DNA from: Deltaproteobacteria bacterium
GTDB lineage: Bacteria; Desulfobacterota; GWC2-55-46; UBA9637
Direction: 5' to 3'
Assembly (NCBI GenBank): GCA_016214995.1
Contig: JACRML010000009.1
Span: 15,155 to 79,154, forward strand
DNA length: 64,000 nucleotides
How positions within the stretch are numbered: position 1 is the stretch's first letter; every line of letters starts with the position of its first letter. The notes under the pieces are model-generated. The model was given only the letters and a program-made list of their open reading frames with translations, ran no database searches and was not told the DNA's origin. Made by a program: the position numbers and the translations under genes. Below are positions 5,115 through 50,617 of this stretch, one piece after another.

Positions 5115-5801
5115 ATGTTTATGGATACAAAGATTTACATAACAGGCATGGGTATATGCAATGAAGTCCCAGCCAAGATAGAGACGCCAAAGGCAGTGAA
5201 GACCGTCATAAAGGCAGAGGAACTGGCTCTGGCCGCAGTGTCTGCGGCGTTCAAGCAAATTAGAACTTGGGAATTAGACACTGGCATTGTCTTCGGCATA
5301 GATAATGCCATAGATAGATGCAAGGCAGAGTTCTTTAAAGGCCTTCTCGCAGAGGGGCCTATCGGCGCAAGCCCGCTGCTGTTCCCTTACACAAGCCATA
5401 ATGTCATAACAGCCCAGGCGACCATTGCCTTTGGCATAAAGGGCGAAGACATCACGATTACCAGCGGGGCATCGTCTTTTATGAAGGCCATTGGATATGG
5501 CTTTGAGTTGCTGTATAGATGTGTAATGAAGTCGGTTATTGCAGGCGGTGTCTCCGAGAATGGGGCAATGGTTATTGTAATGGAGAGCCTTGCCCCTGAT
5601 GAATTAGGAATTAGGAATTGGGAATTAGAAATTAGTAATAACGGGATTATCCTAAAAGAGATTACAGGTTTTAAGAACCCTCTACAACAGGATGAGGCTA
5701 ATGTAAAATCAATAGAGGACTCTTTTCTTTTAGTGGAAGATTTTATTAAGGGGAAAAGTAAACTTGTTACAGAAGACTGGGTATTTCAAATTAAGGCTTG
5801 A
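5115..5801 (+). CDS. truncated KS-like (thiolase-fold N-terminal-like) protein without catalytic Cys; carries an in-frame heptamer-repeat insertion
   Basis: MFMDTKIYITGMGIC... resembles a KS N-terminus. The GSG-like motif has no Cys. (gaattag)n at 5601-5635 encodes LGIRNWELEISNN. Confidence 0.5.
   Translation: MFMDTKIYITGMGICNEVPAKIETPKAVKTVIKAEELALAAVSAAFKQIRTWELDTGIVFGIDNAIDRCKAEFFKGLLAEGPIGASPLLFPYTSHNVITAQATIAFGIKGEDITITSGASSFMKAIGYGFELLYRCVMKSVIAGGVSENGAMVIVMESLAPDELGIRNWELEISNNGIILKEITGFKNPLQQDEANVKSIEDSFLLVEDFIKGKSKLVTEDWVFQIKA
5601..5635. repeat. heptanucleotide tandem repeat (gaattag)n inside a CDS; a second short run lies at 5825-5842
   Basis: Direct reading: gaattaggaattaggaattgggaattagaaattag. 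Confidence 0.9.
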
Positions 5802-31932: not shown

Positions 31933-33426
31933 TCACTCCTTATCAATCTGTGCCTTCTGTAATCTGCCGCTAAAGTCCCTGTAAATTACCTTCCACTTGG
32001 TGAACATGTCAATTGCCCCGCCTCTTCCACCGGCTTCTCTGTGGCCAAGCCCGCTCTTTTTTGTGCCGCCAAAAGGCAGTTGAATCTCAGCGCCGATAGT
32101 AGATGCGTTTATATAAACAAGCCCTGTATCTAAATCCCTTTCTGCAACGGCAGAGTTGTTCACATCTTGCGTGTATATTGCAGATGAAAGGCCGTATTTC
32201 ACATCGTTTACAATTCTTATGGCATCTTCCAACCCATGTGCCTTTATTACAGATACAACAGGGCCGAATATCTCTTCCTGTGCAATTCGCATCTTTTGTT
32301 TTACATTGGCAAATATGGTTGGTTCTATGAAATAACCGTTGGCACACACCCCTTTTTTATATGTCGTGCCTCCGATAACTAGCTTTGCACCTTCTTTCTT
32401 GCCAATTTCAATATAGTTTAATATTTTCTGCATCTGCGATTTATTTATTACAGGCCCCACATCAGTTATTTTTAAAAGGCCATTACCGAGCCTTAACTTT
32501 GAAACAGCTTTTGTGAACATGTTAAGAAACTTATTGTAAACTGCCTCATGTACTACCACCCGGCTTGCCGCCGTGCACCTCTGACCTGTTGTGCCGAAGC
32601 CTCCCCAGATTGCACCTTCAACAGCTAGGTCAAGCATTGCATCATCCATAACAATAATGGCGTTTTTGCCGCCCATCTCACAAGAGATCTCTTTATCCAA
32701 GGTACTGCACATCTTTGCAAGTTTCTCTCCAATAGCAGTTGACCCTGTGAAAGAAACGCCGTCAACCTTTGGATGTGTTGCAAGATATTCACCGATTTCT
32801 TCCCCTGTTCCGTGGACAAGGTTTAAAACGCCGTCTGGAATACCTGCCTCAACAAGTATTTCTACCAATTTTGTAGCGCATACAGGCGTATAGCTTGATG
32901 GTTTAAATACAACCGTATTGCCGCTGACAAGCGCAGGAAATATCTTCCATGCAGGTATGGCTGTAGGAAAGTTCCACGGCGTAATCATGGCAAAAACGCC
33001 GATTGGAACACGGATGGATTTGCAGTCTTTATTGGGCAATTCAGATGGCACGGTTTCACCTGAAAGTCTTCGCCCCTCGCTACCCATGTAGTATGCCATA
33101 TCTATTGCCTCCTGCACATCCCCGAGGCCTTCTGCCAATACCTTGCCCATTTCACGCGTAACAAGCGTGCCTAATTCCTGCTTTCTTTTGTTAAGCATTT
33201 CTGCGGCCCTTAGGATAATTTCACCCCTCTTGGGAGCGGGGATAAGTCGCCATTTATTGTATAGATTGCTGGCCGCAGAGATGGCTGCATCTATATCACT
33301 TTGACCGGAACGAGGAATAATGCCTATTGTGTCCGATGTATCTGCGGGGTTGATGCTTTTAAGGGTCTTTCCATCAGCTGAATCTATCCATTTACCGTTA
33401 ATAAAATTTTTTATCTTTTCAGTCAT
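31933..33426 (-). CDS. NAD(P)-dependent aldehyde dehydrogenase
   Basis: ALDH motifs [14 protein letters not shown], catalytic GQRCTAASR. Confidence 0.85.
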
Positions 33427-33856
33427 GTTAGTTCCTCTTTTTTTAGATAAGACTGCCTCCGATAAATTCGGCCAAAGGCAAAGTCTTTTTTTGTTGTGGG
33501 TAAACCCTAATATTGTTTACTTTTATACCATCTTTTTTTCATGTTTGCAGTTTACTAAATATAGCAGATGGAATATGTACTGGCAAGTAAAAGTAGAATT
33601 TAAAGACTGAGATTTATATGGTTGGTAGTGTAAAACTTATTGATTTCTTTTATCAGATGATATATATAACAATACTAAATCTATCGCAATGATCATAAAA
33701 TAATGATAAGGCCCTTAACTATTTTACCTCGTTAGAAAGAAAGCCCCGCTTTTTGGACTGGGTAAAATATGATAGCGATGATGGGATCTAAAGCGCCACC
33801 CTGATTTTTAACCGGTTTTACAAAAAAACAAAATCTATTTTTAAGAAGGAGCATCT

Positions 33857-34471
33857 ATGTTTCAGAGACATCAAGATATTGTTAGCAGATTGCTGGTGGT
33901 AATTCTCATGATACCATCTCTTATTTTTACATATTATGCTATATGTCTTTCAGCAGAAAAAACCAAAGGAGACAGTAAAATGGAAAAATTAAAGAACGTC
34001 CATGCGGTGCTTCAAACAAAATTCGGCAGCATTGAGATAAAATTTTATCCGGATGTTGCTCCAAATCATGTGAAAAACTTTATAAAACTTGGTAAGGAAG
34101 GCTTTTATGATGGCACCATATTCCACAGGGTTATACCCGGCTTTATGATTCAGGGAGGTGATCCTAATACAAAGGGGCCGGATAAGAATATTTATGGCAC
34201 CGGCGGGCCGGGTTACAATGTAAAGGCTGAATTTAATACGATAAGCCATAAGAGGGGTATAGTATCAATGGCGAGGGCAAAACATCCTGATAGTGCCGGG
34301 TCTCAGTTTTTTATAGTTGTTAAAGATTCTCCGTTTCTTGACAACCAGTATACTGTCTTTGGCGAGGTTGTGAAAGGAATGGAGGCAGTGGATAAGATTG
34401 TCAATCTTCCCAGAGATTCAAGAGATCTTCCGGATGAAAGGGTTGATATGACGGTCAAGATAACAGAGTGA
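33857..34471 (+). CDS. ppiB: cyclophilin-type peptidyl-prolyl cis-trans isomerase (secreted)
   Basis: FHRVIPGFMIQGGDP...SMAR...SQFFI cyclophilin signature; N-terminal signal/TM. Confidence 0.85.
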   Translation: MFQRHQDIVSRLLVVILMIPSLIFTYYAICLSAEKTKGDSKMEKLKNVHAVLQTKFGSIEIKFYPDVAPNHVKNFIKLGKEGFYDGTIFHRVIPGFMIQGGDPNTKGPDKNIYGTGGPGYNVKAEFNTISHKRGIVSMARAKHPDSAGSQFFIVVKDSPFLDNQYTVFGEVVKGMEAVDKIVNLPRDSRDLPDERVDMTVKITE

Positions 34472-34598
34472 TGACAGGTTTACTCAAAATCCTAAATCGG
34501 ATTTTGGAGTTTCCTTTAATCTTGACATGCTTCACCCCTTCTCTTATATTTATCATCAAAAAGAGCGCATAGTATTTGTGATTTACTGATACAGAGCC

Positions 34599-35459
34599 AT
34601 GCCATCCATAAAAAATAATAATCAGAAGCTAGATAAATCATTAGAACAAATTATAAAGGAAAGATTTGTTCATAGTCTGTCTAATATCGTCTATGACAAG
34701 GTTGCAACTCTATGGCATATTGATAAAGAATCTGAAAAGTTCATGGCACGAATGGCTGTGAATGTTGTTGTAGGGATTTTTTGTTTGGAATATCTTTCGC
34801 ATATTAATTCATTGATAAGGGAAAAAGCCAAGATAAAAGAAAATATTACAGCAATAGATCTATCAGACGAAGATTTAATGGCTAAAGTAAAGACTATTAT
34901 TTCTCATAACGAAGAGGCGGAGTCCATTTTTAAGAATGCAGCCAGCCGGTTAAAAGAAATTATAGATTCAGTAGATATAAAAACCCTGGAAGATTTAACA
35001 AAAATAGCTCATACAGGCGATTACCTTTTATCTTCCTTACAGGATATGAAAGATTCCAGTCATAGTGAATATGCAATATGGCTATCTTCAATTCCCCATT
35101 ATTATGAAAAGGATTTAAAACATCTCGGCCTTATTAAAACGGCGAGAGGTGAATGGAATAACTATACTGAACCTTTTTGGAGTGAACAATCTCTTTCAGA
35201 ACTTTTTCACTTTGAAAAGATACATTCTGACCACCGTATTAATCTTAATGCACAACTAGTGCCGGAAACAGCAAAAGAAGGCTATTTCCCTTGTACCAGA
35301 GCAAATCCAACAGAAGGCAACCGACTTTTAAAAGGCAAAAACAAAAGGATTTATTCAGACCCAGTTAGAAAACTTACTTCAAAAAAGCCAAACTCTTCTG
35401 ATGATAAAGCAGTGGCTTTATCATCGCGGCCTTCTGACAGGGCAAGGATAAGGAGCTAA
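34599..35459 (+). CDS. hypothetical protein (AT-rich, no recognisable domain), first of three tightly linked unknown genes
   Basis: 286-aa ORF with upstream RBS-like sequence; K/E/N-rich; basic low-complexity C-terminus. Confidence 0.5.
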   Translation: MPSIKNNNQKLDKSLEQIIKERFVHSLSNIVYDKVATLWHIDKESEKFMARMAVNVVVGIFCLEYLSHINSLIREKAKIKENITAIDLSDEDLMAKVKTIISHNEEAESIFKNAASRLKEIIDSVDIKTLEDLTKIAHTGDYLLSSLQDMKDSSHSEYAIWLSSIPHYYEKDLKHLGLIKTARGEWNNYTEPFWSEQSLSELFHFEKIHSDHRINLNAQLVPETAKEGYFPCTRANPTEGNRLLKGKNKRIYSDPVRKLTSKKPNSSDDKAVALSSRPSDRARIRS

Positions 35460-35462
35460 TGT

Positions 35463-35885
35463 TTGCACATTAAAGAGAAAATCCAAGGTATTGATTTCCT
35501 ATTGAAGAAAATATGTGCAAACAGGAACCCTGCTTTTGTATCGAATGCAAAGTCAAGGAATGTAGAGATGAAAAGGAAGGTACGGTATTCCTTTGATATC
35601 CCACGTGAAGCCAACAAGAGATTTTCTGTGGTTGTCAAAGACAAGGTTTCGTTTGGTAGTGGCAAGGGACCGTTTGATATAGAGATAGTGGTAATTGGTT
35701 TTGTCTTCCTTAAAGATGAAATGAGGGCATCGCAAATAAAGACCCCGCTACGAGATAACGGCAACGCGAATTTTCTTGTAAATCAATGTTTACCGCACAC
35801 ATCGGCTGCTGTTGCTTATCTTACTGACAGAATGGGGTTTAACCCGATCATTCTTGCCCCCAAATATCCAGCCTCGTCAATCTAA
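35463..35885 (+). CDS. hypothetical protein (140 aa), second gene of the unknown triad
   Basis: Starts 4 nt after the upstream stop; no recognisable motifs. Confidence 0.4.
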   Translation: MHIKEKIQGIDFLLKKICANRNPAFVSNAKSRNVEMKRKVRYSFDIPREANKRFSVVVKDKVSFGSGKGPFDIEIVVIGFVFLKDEMRASQIKTPLRDNGNANFLVNQCLPHTSAAVAYLTDRMGFNPIILAPKYPASSI

Positions 35886-35901
35886 AAGGAGGGATAAAGA
35901 T

Positions 35902-36636
35902 TTGCATGTAGACTTTCCGGTTGATGAAAGATCTCTTAGGTATATAGAAGCCATGGAGAACGATCCGGATATAAAAGCAATTATTTCAATTCTTTTGGAT
36001 AAACGAAAACAAGATTTTCATAATTATGCATCTATAATATGTTTTTGCTATAAAGAAGAAGACCTCATAAACCTGCCTGATGTCAAATACCTTCCTGATA
36101 AGGTCAAAGCATGGATCAAGCGAAAAAGTTTTGACCACGATACTAATTATCTTACATTTTTTAAACACTTGTTTTCACTTTACTCTGGTTTTGTCCAGAC
36201 ATACGAAGGGTGGGATAAGCTTGGTAAACATAGGAGTGTAATTCCAGAATCATATGTCTATCATAGGATAAAGGAGAGGTATGCCTCAAAGCCGGAAGTT
36301 AAAGTTGGAAAAGAATGTTTTGTCGTTATAGACGGCTGGAGCAGCCATATAGACAGAACCAAAGATGAGGGACAAAAGGTTGACATAGGTGTGTGGGACT
36401 ACATAGCGCAGCATGGAGAGGCGTATGAGGTAAAGGTCAAGGTTTATATCAAAGAAAAGGAGCATCAGCTTGAATTTCTTGAAACAATAAGGAAACTATC
36501 AAATAAGAGGATAGATGTCTTTCTTGCAAGTTTTGCCCCGAAGCATGTTATACTACAACATCTCAAGTCTTTTTTCCCTGGCAGGGATTTGAGCCAGATA
36601 AATATTTTGGGAGTAGATGAACTGCAGAATATTTAG
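35902..36636 (+). CDS. hypothetical protein (244 aa; TTG start with AAAGGAGGG RBS), third gene of the unknown triad
   Basis: In-frame TTG 7 nt after a strong SD. The longer ORF from 35812 overlaps the upstream gene. No recognisable domain. Confidence 0.45.
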
Positions 36637-36712
36637 GTGGAAATGTAGAATTCAATTTTTCTATTTTGACCTTCGACTTTCGCATTTTGTATTGCATATT
36701 TCTAGAGATTTT

Positions 36713-37099
36713 ATGAAAAAAGAGGTGATAAATACTAATGATGCTCCTAAGGCAATAGGGCCATATTCACAGGCTGTAAAGGCAAATGGTTTTATATTTG
36801 TTTCAGGCCAAATACCAATAGATCCTGCTACAAGTGAAATTGTAAAAGGAGATATCGTAGAGCAGACCAGACAGGTTCTAAAAAACATAAACAGTATCCT
36901 TGAGGGTGCCGGCGCTGGTCTTAGCGATGTTGTAAAAACAACTGTTTACCTAAAGGATTTAAAAGATTTTGGTGATATGAATCGGATATATGGTGAGTTT
37001 TTTACAGCCACTTTTCCTGCAAGGGCAACTATAGAGGCAAGCAATCTGCCAAAAGGTGTTGATGTTGAGATAGATGCAATAGCTGTGGCTAAGTGTTGA
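36713..37099 (+). CDS. ridA: RidA/YjgF-family reactive-intermediate deaminase
   Basis: [12 protein letters not shown]...[10 protein letters not shown]....TTVYL...ARA..E.. typical RidA, 128 aa. Confidence 0.85.
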
Positions 37100-37166
37100 G
37101 TGTTGAGCGATCAGTAGCGAGTTGTTTTTTTACTAATCACTGAACACTGACCACTTTTCACTGTTG

Positions 37167-37358
37167 TTATGCTGCCTTTGTTACAGCACCAGACCTCATA
37201 CATCTAGTGCAGATACGTATCCTTTTTGTTTGCCCCTTGTAAATAACCCTTGCTGTCTGAAGATTAGGGTTTCTGCGTCTTCTAGTCTTATTATTTGCAT
37301 GGCTTACATTGTTGCCAAAATCAGGGCCTTTACCACATATTGCACAAACCATAGACAT
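37167..37358 (-). CDS. rpmB: 50S ribosomal protein L28
   Basis: [34 protein letters not shown] matches the L28 N-terminus. Confidence 0.8.
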
Positions 37359-37670
37359 GTCTACAACCTCCGTAGAATAATAATCTAAAATGTTTACCAT
37401 ATCTTGTAGCCGATTGCAAGTGTTTTTATAAAATGCTTCTAATCAGGATGTTAAAAAACTCTCTCTATGTCATTCCCGAAGTTTTTATCGGGAATCTAGT
37501 TGTTGTAAAATAAACACCTTATGGATTCCAGTTCTCCGTCTTCACGAGGACAAGTTTCGTGGAAATGACAACTTTCGGTGCAAATATATATCTTTTCAAC
37601 AACCTTTTCTTTTGGCAGAATATTCTTAAGGCCCAGAAATAGGCATTGATTTTTATGGTTAAGGGATAAA

Positions 37671-38261: not shown

Positions 38262-38335
38262 AGTCATTAGTCAAGAGTCAGAAGCAGTAGGTTTTTAGCT
38301 TCTGACTTTTGACTTTTTATGACTTCTGACTGTTA
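38262..38335. repeat. inverted heptamer-repeat hairpin (agtcaag/agtcaga ... cttctgac/tttgact)
   Basis: agtcaagagtcagaagcagtaggtttttagcttctgacttttgactt. Confidence 0.8.
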
Positions 38336-38614
38336 TTCCGGCAGTTTATACCCTTTGCCTGCAAACTGGATATTTGCAGGGTCTTCACATCGTGGCGGAG
38401 ATACAGCATGTACACCGCCGCATTTCGGACATTTAGCCACAAAGGTTTTCATAACAAACTTTTCGCCACAGCCCTGGCATTTAGCATCTAATCCCCCACC
38501 TGGGATAGGGGCATTTCTTACACCGCCTCCATGTGCGTTATAGACAAACTCAACCAATTCCAAGCCTTCTGAAAAAGGTCCTGCACCAGTAGAGCAGCTT
38601 CCGCAATCACCCAT
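38333..38614 (-). CDS. Cys-rich zinc-ribbon protein (FmdB-like, tentative)
   Basis: CQGCGEKF...CPKCGG paired CxxC motifs; Gly-rich segment. Confidence 0.4.
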   Translation of the reverse strand: MGDCGSCSTGAGPFSEGLELVEFVYNAHGGGVRNAPIPGGGLDAKCQGCGEKFVMKTFVAKCPKCGGVHAVSPPRCEDPANIQFAGKGYKLPE

Positions 38615-43849: not shown

Positions 43850-44731
43850 ATGAAATTTGAACTTAAGCCATATAACCTTAATGCTACTGATAAGGAATTA
43901 TTATATGATCTTATAAAAATAGCCAAAGAGCTAAAAACAGAAAAGCTTAAAATGAGGGATTATGATAGAAAGGGAAGATTTTCTGGAGGGACTATTGCAA
44001 GAAGATTTGGAAGTTGGAATAATGCTTTAGGAAAAGCAGGATTAGAAATAACTCGGAAATCTAATCTTACAGATGAAGAATTGCTTGAAGACATGAAAAG
44101 AGTTGCCAAAGAAATAGCCCCTCAGAGGTTGACTCAAAGTAGTTATAGTAATAAAGGGAAATTCACTACTCAAACGATTGGTGAACGATTAGGTTGGAAC
44201 AATGCCTTAATCAAAATAGGATTAGAAGTGACTGTTCAGCAAAATATTACAGAGGAAGAATTATATAAAAATCTTGAAGAAACTTGGATTAAACTTGGAA
44301 GGCAGCCCGGCAGAAGAGACATGATAAAACCTTTTTCAAAATATTCCGAAAGACCTTATATTAATAAATTTCGAACATGGCGAAAGGCTTTGGAATCATT
44401 CGTTGAATTCATAAATGCAGAAAAACATATTCAAGAAAATGAAGACAATGAAATTTTAAAAGAGGTTAAAGAAATCGAAACGAAAAATCAACCTTACATT
44501 CATAAAACTAAACGAGACATTAATTTAAGACTTCGTTTTCTCGTAATGAGACGTGATAATTTTAAATGTGTCAATGATGGTCGCTCTCCAGCTACGCATA
44601 TTGGAATTACTCTGCATGTTGATCATATTATACCGTGGTCTAAAAATGGCGAGACAGTTTTAGAAAACTTACAGACACTTTGCTCTGATTGTAATTTAGG
44701 GAAAAGCAACATGGATATGTATGAGAATTAA
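43850..44731 (+). CDS. HNH endonuclease with two tandem N-terminal ~60-aa repeat modules
   Basis: C-terminal HVDHIIPWSKNGETVLENLQTLCSDCNLGK (HNH); N-terminal repeats GGTIARRFGSWNNALGKAGLEITRKSNLTDEEL / TQTIGERLGWNNALIKIGLEVTVQQNITEEEL. Confidence 0.7.
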   Translation: MKFELKPYNLNATDKELLYDLIKIAKELKTEKLKMRDYDRKGRFSGGTIARRFGSWNNALGKAGLEITRKSNLTDEELLEDMKRVAKEIAPQRLTQSSYSNKGKFTTQTIGERLGWNNALIKIGLEVTVQQNITEEELYKNLEETWIKLGRQPGRRDMIKPFSKYSERPYINKFRTWRKALESFVEFINAEKHIQENEDNEILKEVKEIETKNQPYIHKTKRDINLRLRFLVMRRDNFKCVNDGRSPATHIGITLHVDHIIPWSKNGETVLENLQTLCSDCNLGKSNMDMYEN

Positions 44732-44865: not shown

Positions 44866-45330
44866 ATGGCAACCCCCTGGCCCCCTTCTCTAAGGGGGAA
44901 TAAACTACAGGATGGCCAGGGGGTTGTTGTGAAAATCCGCTATAACCCTAAATTGAAATCCTTTTCAAGGCAGCTCAGAAACAACAGCACATTATCTGAA
45001 GCGCTGCTGTGGAATCAGTTAAAAGCCCGAAAGATAAAGGGCTATCAATTCATGAGGCAGAAACCGATAGATGAGTATATTGTTGATTTTTATTGCAGCA
45101 AACTAAAACTTGTAATAGAAATAGATGGTGAGAGCCATAGTGAAAAAGCAGATGCTGACTTGAAAAGGCAGAAACGGCTTGAGGCAACAGGTTTGAGTGT
45201 TTTGAGATTTTTTGATCGAGATGTTAAGAAGAATATAGAAGGTGTGGTAAGTGTCATTGGGAAATGGATTGAGGACAACTCGTTAAAAGGGGAATACCCC
45301 CCCCCTACCCCCTTTATTAAGGGGGAATAA
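44866..45330 (+). CDS. DUF559 endonuclease-domain protein (Vsr/restriction-endonuclease-like fold); possible GTG start at 44929
   Basis: LSEALLWNQLKARKIKGYQFMRQKPIDEYIVDFYC...VIEIDGESHS....D..R...L...G..VLRF matches the DUF559 pattern. Flanked by inverted repeats at 44812-44830 and 45306-45324. Confidence 0.7.
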   Translation: MATPWPPSLRGNKLQDGQGVVVKIRYNPKLKSFSRQLRNNSTLSEALLWNQLKARKIKGYQFMRQKPIDEYIVDFYCSKLKLVIEIDGESHSEKADADLKRQKRLEATGLSVLRFFDRDVKKNIEGVVSVIGKWIEDNSLKGEYPPPTPFIKGE

Positions 45331-50002: not shown

Positions 50003-50617
50003 ATGAAAACTATTGGACATATGCAAATTAATAGCAACCTATCTATTGAAACTACACGGAAGAAAGCTCTTGAGAGAATGCAAAAAGGCATAATTGCCTA
50101 TAAATTGTCCAATCTTGGATGGGATGTTTCGGAACATTATGGAGACGGATTTGATTTATTATGTTTGCGAAATCAAGATGGGACTCAGGAGATTGCAAGA
50201 AAGATAGAATTAAAGGCTGTTGACCTTAAATCTTATTCAAGAGAAGCAAAAAATAAATCTCATTCAAGAAAAGCAAAAAGTTTTTCCCAAGCCATATCAC
50301 CCAATGAAATTGTTGCATCTACCCACATAATAATCTCTATTTTTAATGAGATTGAACTCAAAGGACACTTTGTTATGTCTATTCGACAAGTCTTCAATGC
50401 AGTAAAAAAGAAGAAGACATCAAAATTTAAAAAGTACAAATCTTTTTCAGAATTTCAAAAGGCTGCATGGAAGGTTTCTCAAAAAAAGGTATTGCGTCGG
50501 AAAGGTAACAAGAAAAAATTACCCAGATTGAGCTTGGATATAGGATGTACCTTTAAGAAGTTTAATAAAGGTGACTGGGAGTTGGACACTTTCAAGGACA
50601 AATGGGATAATTTATAA
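50003..50617 (+). CDS. PD-(D/E)xK nuclease-like protein (YraN/Hjc-like core) with lysine-rich C-terminal extension
   Basis: LSNLGWDV...GDGFDLLCL...IARKIELKAV matches the E..D..ExK arrangement of YraN/Hjc-type nucleases; AT-rich gene. Confidence 0.45.
   Translation: MKTIGHMQINSNLSIETTRKKALERMQKGIIAYKLSNLGWDVSEHYGDGFDLLCLRNQDGTQEIARKIELKAVDLKSYSREAKNKSHSRKAKSFSQAISPNEIVASTHIIISIFNEIELKGHFVMSIRQVFNAVKKKKTSKFKKYKSFSEFQKAAWKVSQKKVLRRKGNKKKLPRLSLDIGCTFKKFNKGDWELDTFKDKWDNL

Follow-up and report, generated by a model that had tools for sequence, protein, structure and literature searches.

What is the function of three adjacent genes, encoding proteins of 286, 140 and 244 amino acids (aa), that lie between ppiB and ridA in the genome of an uncultivated bacterium? 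The genes (open reading frames ORF1, ORF2 and ORF3) form a compact cassette at 34599-36636 of a 64,000-nucleotide stretch of contig JACRML010000009.1, which was analysed as a whole and is referred to here as the window. The contig measures 91 kb and belongs to a metagenome-assembled genome with the label 'Deltaproteobacteria bacterium'. A preliminary description of the sequence had assigned the three proteins to no known family, and this still holds, as none of them has a match above noise in Pfam, NCBIfam, PADLOC or PHROGs. The same description regarded the cassette as a horizontally acquired defence or accessory system, an interpretation that our results largely contradict. Instead, we give an even chance to the reading that the cassette is a chaperone-gated nuclease module resembling the toxin-antitoxin-chaperone (TAC) systems, built from a predicted nuclease (ORF3), a partner protein with a long disordered tail (ORF1) and a small protein with likeness to the chaperone SecB (ORF2). 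This reading draws on the predicted fold and invariant residues of ORF3, on the sequence likeness between ORF2 and SecB, and on the joint loss of ORF2 and the ORF1 tail in separate lineages.

The predicted nuclease, its tailed partner and the small protein between them

The structure of ORF3 (35902-36636, + strand) was predicted with AlphaFold2 (AF2) from a 51-sequence alignment, with a predicted local distance difference test (pLDDT) value of 94 and a predicted template modelling score (pTM) of 0.91. The N-terminal domain (residues 1-126; 35902-36279, + strand) is all-helical in this model and very highly conserved, including the stretches NYASIICFC and LGKxRSxxPE, and its last helix (residues 101-126) carries an invariant E116. 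The domain is followed by a core (residues 133-244 plus stop; 36298-36636, + strand) of beta-beta-beta-alpha-beta topology, with strands at residues 133-139, 160-166 and 171-178, a helix at 187-199 and a final strand at 204-210. Helix 101-126 and this core together form the alpha-beta-beta-beta-alpha-beta core fold of the PD-(D/E)xK superfamily, as found in the AF2 model and with Foldseek. Their invariance marks D161 (36382-36384), E176 (36427-36429) and K178 (36433-36435; all + strand) as candidate catalytic residues. D161 opens strand 160-166 and E176-V-K178 is located on strand 171-178, with E116 in the preceding helix. These locations are as expected for the superfamily, in which the catalytic D begins beta-2 and (D/E)xK is found on beta-3, often together with an acidic residue in helix 1. 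Neither the 51-sequence alignment nor a set of 42 unique sequences, among them those of the two-gene variants described below, shows any variation at the four residues of ORF3. The preliminary description, in which no catalytic motif was recognized by eye, had therefore missed the signature E116, D161, E176-x-K178.

The top Foldseek matches of ORF3 in the PDB were VC1899, Card1, Cdn1 and Can2 (E 3e-5 to 4e-3; query-normalised template modelling score 0.36-0.51), to which ORF3 has 10-14% sequence identity, and EndoMS/NucS, HindIII and Kpn2I were found at lower ranks (E 1e-2 to 1e-1). PDB sequence profile searches gave no informative match for any of the three families, and no Pfam match of ORF3 to CARF or DUF1887 was obtained even at E<=1. 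From the structural model, we confidently predict that ORF3 is a PD-(D/E)xK nuclease with a domain closest to the nuclease domain of Can2 and Card1. Because ORF3 has no CARF domain, it is not a member of the Can2/Card1 family.

ORF1 (34599-35459, + strand) consists of two parts. Residues 1-176 (34599-35126, + strand) comprise a helical-bundle domain of no known fold family, modelled by AF2 over residues ~5-176 with a pLDDT of about 88-96 across residues 40-180. Conserved residues in the alignment of this domain include H25, H40, D42, E46, H138, D141, W161, Y169 and D172. Conserved His and Asp residues had suggested an HD-domain or HEPN protein by eye, but both candidates were rejected, as there is no adjacent HD, no Rx4-6H and no family match. 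A fold search with ORF1 returned nothing significant in the PDB (best E 0.5) or in the viral BFVD (best E 0.03). The structural check proposed in the preliminary description, AF2 followed by Foldseek, was thus productive for ORF3, where it revealed the nuclease fold, and left ORF1 without a fold relative. The second part of ORF1 is a disordered tail (residues 183-286 plus stop; 35145-35459, + strand) with a pLDDT <50 almost throughout the AF2 model. The tail is aromatic and basic, contains the motifs W..Q.P.E.F, HRINLN and GYFPC, which are conserved by clade, and has a basic end. Across the loci studied, the number of aromatic residues in long ORF1 tails is 3-11 and that of basic residues 10-20. 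The evolution of ORF1 is faster than that of ORF3, with identities of 38-66% versus 57-89%. Antitoxins often evolve faster than their toxins.

ORF2 (35463-35885, + strand) belongs to a tiny family, with 9 representatives at E<=1e-3 among the 1.8 billion searched. Its C-terminus (…NQCLPHTSAAVAYLTDRMGFNPIILAP) resembles the C-terminus of SecB, and that of distant members reads LPYACEIVAYLTGKMGLPPLILPP. The motif L-P-[YH]-x5-[IV]-x5-R/K-x-G-F-x-P-[IL]-x-L-x-P is common to the ORF2 family and SecB. For comparison, a multiple sequence alignment of 12 genuine SecB proteins from annotated records was used. Alignment of the ORF2 family to this set with hhalign gave a score of 29.0 (P 6.4e-4), and the aligned register extends over the sheet and the long C-terminal helix. 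None of 200 column-shuffled controls reached this score (mean 13.0, standard deviation 2.8, maximum 24.2), and control scores of 10-16 were obtained with the reversed alignment, the ORF1 alignment and the ORF3 alignment. When the 3,262 ORFs of all loci were ranked without filtering by a SecB hidden Markov model (HMM), the ORF2 family occupied ranks 1-9 and 20 of the 27 top ranks. Sub-threshold Pfam matches to SecB came from two different family members (E 0.007 and E 0.04), and in a scan of all alignment members against the family libraries, which otherwise gave sporadic weak matches, SecB for ORF2 was the sole coherent one. Against the single SecB of E. coli, hhalign placed ORF2 in the correct register at a score that was not significant. 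Judged by these sequence comparisons, ORF2 quite probably has the SecB fold.

The distribution of the three genes was studied in ~80 loci, which came from GTDB species genomes, Joint Genome Institute (JGI) metagenomes and look-ups of exact proteins. The loci were scanned with HMMs of the three families and are designated here by L numbers. In every locus with room for it, ORF1 is found immediately upstream of ORF3 and in the same orientation, and the order ORF1-(ORF2)-ORF3 is invariant. ORF2 is missing in three clades only (L001-3/L019/L020, L035-38 and L058/L082), which are separate in the ORF3 tree and are each nested among ORF2-bearing lineages. The part of ORF1 beyond the helical domain measures 64-112 aa in loci with ORF2 and 30-37 aa in loci without ORF2, and there are no exceptions. 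Over three independent losses, a long tail on ORF1, resembling the extensions to which TAC chaperones bind (see below), occurs if and only if ORF2 is present. One loss is very recent, as L038 and the ORF2-bearing L012 have ORF3 proteins that are 96% identical. In L035 and L038, remnants can still be recognized: the ORF1 tail is internally deleted and frameshifted, and a palindrome resembling repetitive extragenic palindromic (REP) elements, CCCGTTTAAAAACATAACGGG, takes the place of ORF2. This REP-like element may have mediated the deletion of the ORF1 tail and ORF2.

Sites of the REP-like palindrome, CCCGTTTAAAAACATAACGGG(ACAAG), were observed in L038 (472-492 and 1060-1140), L010 (1185-1205) and L035 (~5375-5400). 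Read in frame, the element encodes 'PFKNITGQ' in three places: the 5' end of ORF1 contains it (P0080), ORF2 has it at its 3' end (P0102), and it marks the deletion scar (P0079, P0080). The palindrome is absent from the window.

Putative mechanism and known analogues

By analogy, the closest known counterparts of the cassette would be the TAC systems HigBAC, MqsRAC, HicABC and CmdTAC. TAC antitoxins possess a variable, disordered C-terminal chaperone-addiction (ChAD) extension with aromatic and basic motifs, which is bound by a dedicated SecB-like chaperone (PMC5105189; bioRxiv 10.1101/2024.02.24.581848). Deletion of the ChAD renders a TAC system chaperone-independent (PMC5105189), and some TAC modules are anti-phage (bioRxiv 10.1101/2024.02.24.581848; PMC11618068). 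The cassette resembles these systems in its tricistronic layout, in which the gene for a small, probably SecB-like, protein stands beside the gene for a tailed protein. As in ChAD-bearing antitoxins, the C-terminal extension of ORF1 is long, disordered and rich in aromatic and basic residues. The arrangement within ORF1 is also that of CmdA of CmdTAC, in which N-terminal helices are followed by a long unstructured C-terminus (PMC11618068). The third component would be a potentially toxic enzyme, if the toxicity presumed for ORF3 by analogy holds. Finally, extension and chaperone are removable as a module in TAC systems, and here both have been lost together at least three times in nature.

We propose a mechanism that would connect what the analysis shows, namely that the three genes form a conserved operon, that ORF3 has a nuclease fold with invariant catalytic residues, that ORF1 ends in a disordered stretch, and that this tail and ORF2 were lost jointly. 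ORF3 would be the effector, an active PD-(D/E)xK nuclease with a Can2/Card1-like domain behind a helical N-domain. ORF1 would be its obligate partner, with a helical domain that binds ORF3 and restrains or regulates it, and the ~100-residue disordered aromatic/basic tail would make ORF1 dependent on ORF2, in the manner of a ChAD-like client. ORF2 would act as a small SecB-like holdase that binds and protects this tail, as the SecB(TA) chaperones bind the ChAD of TAC antitoxins. Should the chaperone be lost or titrated, ORF1 would be destabilised and the nuclease released. The tail and ORF2 would thus represent an optional regulatory layer upon an ORF1-ORF3 core. Of the two interactions in this proposal, binding of the ORF1 tail by ORF2 appears to us rather more probable than its opposite, and restraint by ORF1 of an ORF3 that is toxic when free falls slightly short of an even chance.

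The cassette differs from the described TAC systems in several respects. The toxins of the latter are RNases (HigB, MqsR, HicA) or an ADP-ribosyltransferase (CmdT), whereas the effector here would be a PD-(D/E)xK nuclease. ORF1 has a 176-aa helical bundle without a helix-turn-helix or an antitoxin domain of the HigA, MqsA or HicB type, and the sequence of ORF2 is only marginally similar to SecB. The cassette is, moreover, apparently vertically inherited, highly conserved and located outside prophages and defence islands. Our literature search found no paper that links a SecB-like chaperone with a PD-(D/E)xK nuclease, and PADLOC has no model of the cassette.

Can2, Card1, Cdn1 and VC1899 are CARF-nuclease effectors of type III CRISPR systems with a DUF1887-type nuclease domain, and share the PD-(D/E)xK core, with D...ExK, with ORF3. 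In contrast to these effectors, ORF3 has no CARF or Rossmann-like sensor and its N-domain is all helical. Its regulation, if any, would come from the separate proteins ORF1 and ORF2 and not from cyclic oligoadenylate. No type III CRISPR-Cas association was found, and none of the annotated cassette neighbourhoods contains cas genes. With the lower-ranked structural matches NucS/EndoMS, HindIII and Kpn2I, ORF3 has the PD-(D/E)xK core fold in common, but it has neither a methyltransferase partner nor the N-terminal dimerisation domain of NucS, and the domain architecture differs.

SecB (PF02556) itself is similar to ORF2 in size, in the motif given above and in the aligned region of beta-sheet and long C-terminal helix. 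ORF2, however, remains below the detection thresholds of Pfam and PDB searches, and its family is tiny. It is encoded in an operon with a presumed single client, whereas SecB is a general export chaperone. SecB is also described as a chaperone with general housekeeping duties in Pseudomonadota (bioRxiv 10.1101/2024.02.24.581848), whereas the MAGs (metagenome-assembled genomes) that host ORF2 carry non-proteobacterial labels.

A number of observations weigh against a TAC-like nuclease module. The hhalign probability for ORF2 and SecB is 28%, and SecB chains were not recovered by PDB sequence profile searches, also when the ORF2 profile was broadened. ORF1 has no DNA-binding or antitoxin domain detectable with the family libraries or the fold search. 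The genes are ordered partner-chaperone-nuclease (A-C-T) in all loci and not toxin-antitoxin-chaperone (T-A-C). The joint loss of tail and ORF2 is weaker evidence than unlinked losses would be, because the tail DNA adjoins ORF2 and one deletion removes both. Among ~45 complete loci no decayed copy was seen. A scan of 2.9 million viral contigs for ORF1 and ORF3 recovered no relatives, the cassette neighbourhoods offer no defence-island contexts, and PADLOC-DB v2 gives no match below E 0.02. Lastly, ORF3 is at least as conserved as the adjacent RidA and ribosomal protein L28 and more conserved than a syntenic GH57 protein, and the synteny is deep, which is unlike typical toxin-antitoxin (TA) or defence genes.

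Expression, inheritance and rival explanations

Our analyses support the cassette as one compact, co-transcribed operon of three undescribed protein families. The three co-oriented ORFs with gaps of 3 nucleotides (nt) between ORF1 and ORF2 and 16 nt between ORF2 and ORF3 were confirmed as given in the preliminary description, as were the flanking genes, which encode a cyclophilin-type peptidyl-prolyl isomerase (ppiB) and RidA/L-PSP. Upstream, the unit is bounded by a terminator-like hairpin downstream of ppiB (34484-34507, + strand), recognized in a terminator scan and in the sequence. Between this hairpin and the ATG start of ORF1, a sigma-70-type promoter, TTGACA-17 nt-TATATT (34522-34550, + strand), has 11/12 consensus matches and is the best promoter-like site within 33700-37500. 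A cTTGACA-~17-TAtAtT element is located upstream of ORF1 in most related loci, the exceptions being L014, L018/L032 and L055, which show none in the stretch read. ORF2 and ORF3 both start with TTG. The sequence shows a Shine-Dalgarno site for ORF2, AAGGAG (35450-35455, + strand), within the 3' end of ORF1 and 7 nt ahead of the TTG. The Shine-Dalgarno site of ORF3, AAAGGAGGG (35885-35893, + strand), is 8 nt ahead of its TTG. This start, already noted in the preliminary description, is corroborated by ORF3 homologs, which share this initiation codon (M-x-V-x-F-P-V-D-E).

ORF1 and ORF2 are in one frame, separated by a TAA plus one codon (35457-35465), and the same is the case in L004, L013 and L014. 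This same-frame arrangement with an internal Shine-Dalgarno site suggests translational coupling. An ORF1-ORF2 fusion or stop-codon readthrough was considered and rejected, as the arrangement is not systematic and the genes elsewhere overlap or are in differing frames. The terminator scan detected no terminator-like site in the interval between ORF3 and ridA (36637-36703), and the ORF3 stop overlaps the ridA start (ATGA) in L035 (6155-6158) and L038 (1890-1893), so that ridA may be co-transcribed with the cassette in the clade of the window. An Rfam scan of 33400-37500 gave nothing.

The main alternative is that the genes encode a lineage-specific housekeeping nuclease complex, in which ORF1 and ORF3 would make up an enzyme in constitutive use for some cellular DNA or RNA transaction, for example repair, recombination or RNA processing, in which ORF2 would be an assembly chaperone of ORF1 and which would have no TA or defence role. 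We regard this as a serious possibility of clearly less than even probability. It is favoured by the inheritance of the cassette. The preliminary description had the cassette 'wedged' between its neighbours, but the order cassette-ridA-rpmB-DUF218 is conserved in at least seven related genomes or contigs. The cassette is followed by ridA in L004/22, L010-12, L028, L035 and L038, and where the contigs reach far enough, rpmB, a DUF218 gene and a gene for a 93-aa protein come after ridA, as in the window. In these loci, ORF3 is 82-89% identical to the window, compared with 75-82% for RidA, 77-88% for L28 and 59-62% for DUF218; the values for ORF1 and ORF2 are 60-66% and 64-76%, respectively. In both deep branches, a GH57 gene (~740 aa) is found directly upstream of the cassette (L005-7, L021, L025-26, L029-31), the hosts being a 'Deltaproteobacteria' MAG (L029) and a clade of 'Nitrospirae' MAGs. 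Across this deepest split, ORF3 is 57-58% identical and the syntenic GH57 47-50%. In the clade of the window, the GH57 junction has been replaced by other genes. From these data, we conclude that the cassette is an old gene set under strong purifying selection, which apparently has long been resident in the lineage and was inherited vertically, and is not a recent import. A housekeeping complex would also agree with the intactness of all complete copies and their invariant catalytic residues, with a native base composition (see below), with housekeeping neighbours, with the absence of ORF1 and ORF3 relatives from the viral contigs, and with a consensus promoter that suggests steady expression.

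Other findings are less easily explained by such a complex. The operon-encoded SecB-like proteins described in the TAC literature are TAC chaperones (bioRxiv 10.1101/2024.02.24.581848), and the host MAGs are outside the Pseudomonadota, as read from their NCBI labels. Structurally, the nuclease is nearest to Can2 and Card1, which are abortive-infection effectors. The loss of tail and chaperone on at least three occasions, with ORF1 and ORF3 kept, looks regulatory and not like the loss of an assembly requirement. No known repair or processing genes were seen in any neighbourhood. The distribution is very narrow, with 19 of 185,579 GTDB species genomes matched in a pattern-limited search, and covers uncultivated groundwater and hydrothermal lineages. 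The matched genomes are labelled as Deltaproteobacteria, Thermodesulfobacteriota or Nitrospirae MAGs, with a short 'Nanoarchaeia' contig as the sole exception. Thus, the conservation data favour a housekeeping complex, whereas a TAC-like module is favoured by the SecB/ChAD logic, by an effector that is Can2-like and by a chaperone layer that can be dispensed with.

Two side observations concern these loci. The exceptional contig (L010; DASRUK010000033.1, 3.5 kb), labelled 'Candidatus Nanoarchaeia archaeon', contains a cassette that is 88-89% identical, followed by the start of ridA, and is probably a mis-binned bacterial contig. The 93-aa protein encoded after DUF218 (38333-38614, - strand) is Cys-rich (CxxC…CxxC…CxxC, zinc-ribbon-like) and is without a Pfam match. 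Its identity in relatives is 79-95%, a conservation that at least matches that of ribosomal protein L28.

A further reading, which we consider less probable than not, is that a SecB-like/ChAD-type switch has become a fixed and lasting part of the cell, passed on vertically, and governs a Can2-like PD-(D/E)xK nuclease. The cassette would then be a domesticated TAC-type module or a new cellular nuclease machine and not a selfish or mobile TA or defence element. The hosts form a whole group of uncultivated bacteria, represented by MAGs with Nitrospirae and Deltaproteobacteria labels, across which the cassette is conserved, in most comparisons more strongly than the neighbouring ribosomal protein gene.

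The origin proposed in the preliminary description, in which a defence or accessory island with a foreign, AT-rich composition was acquired horizontally and inserted between ppiB and ridA, is very improbable. Compared with 56 window genes (mean GC content 0.406, standard deviation 0.033), ORF1 has a GC content of 0.347 (z -1.8), ORF2 of 0.409 (z +0.1) and ORF3 of 0.371 (z -1.1), so that ORF2 and ORF3 are within about one standard deviation of the window. The GC content at third codon positions is lower in ridA than in any of ORF1, ORF2 and ORF3, and three other window genes are more AT-rich than the cassette ORFs. The composition of the cassette is native, with only ORF1 mildly AT-rich, and a foreign origin argued from composition was rejected on this comparison. 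The proteins do contain the K and I (about 10% and about 9%, respectively) that had led to their description as K/E/N/I-rich, but this is unremarkable in a genome of 40% GC.

An acquired island would be consistent with a compact operon whose unknown proteins include a nuclease, with the mild AT-richness of ORF1, with an upstream neighbour that differs among close relatives (in the window it is ppiB, whereas L004 has PilZ genes and L035 a GGDEF gene), and with a RES-Xre toxin-antitoxin pair beside the cassette in one locus. It conflicts with the conserved ORF3-ridA junction, at which the genes overlap in L035 and L038, with the deep GH57 synteny and with the lack of viral ORF1 or ORF3 relatives and of a PADLOC match. 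Inspection of the flanks and their annotations revealed no boundary in the form of an integrase, repeat or tRNA, although no dedicated tRNA or repeat scan was made. Other neighbours across the loci encode HflX, sigma-54 regulators, nitrate reductase, ABC transporters and DksA. The neighbours of the cassette are housekeeping or regulatory genes and not a defence island. Of the co-occurrence asked about in the preliminary description, the genes were indeed found together, but not in defence islands. Singly scattered, housekeeping-like homologs had been named there as evidence to the contrary; the homologs are conserved and long resident, as such genes would be, but never scattered singly.

The RES-Xre pair is located between the cassette and a dksA-like gene (L006:6284-7225, a 'Nitrospirae' MAG) and is absent from L005, whose neighbourhood otherwise equals that of L006. 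The preliminary description had singled out the cassette on composition grounds, but within the window an HNH homing endonuclease gene (43850-44731; GC 0.325, z -2.5), with HNH-associated repeats, is the most AT-rich and the truly foreign-looking one, and on these grounds it is a better candidate for foreign DNA. It is followed by a DUF559 (Vsr-like) endonuclease at 44866-45330. A second compositional outlier is a 204-aa ORF at 50003-50617 (GC 0.332, z -2.3) without a Pfam match.

That the ORFs are spurious or decaying and without function, as the lack of annotation in any family library and the TTG starts of two of the three genes might suggest, has a negligible probability in view of the full-length conservation of each ORF in dozens of genomes, the high AF2 confidence for ORF3 and the ORF1 helical domain, and the Shine-Dalgarno sites and promoter. 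Homolog clusters number 58 for ORF3, 20 for ORF2 and 37 for ORF1. The ORF3 clusters are 56-94% identical to ORF3, and almost all full-length members measure 243-245 aa. The ORF2 homologs (141-142 aa) cover 99% of ORF2. The NCBI gene call for ORF2 is 105 aa long and omits the N-terminal 35 residues, but these are conserved in the homologs, which supports the TTG start of the 140-aa protein.

Significance of the cassette

The cassette defines three unannotated protein families. If the proposed mechanism is true, the TAC principle, in which a SecB-like holdase guards a disordered addiction tail, would extend to a Can2/Card1-type nuclease of DNA or RNA, and would also gain a new partner fold, as it has so far been known for RNase and ADP-ribosyltransferase toxins. 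The lineages, at least three, that have lost both tail and chaperone would then be a natural counterpart of the laboratory deletion of the ChAD. The distribution is narrow, the key interactions are drawn by analogy, and such deep conservation is odd for a TA-like module. If the mechanism holds, this unusually deep and vertical conservation would also prompt one to ask whether modules of this kind may turn into permanent machinery of the cell.

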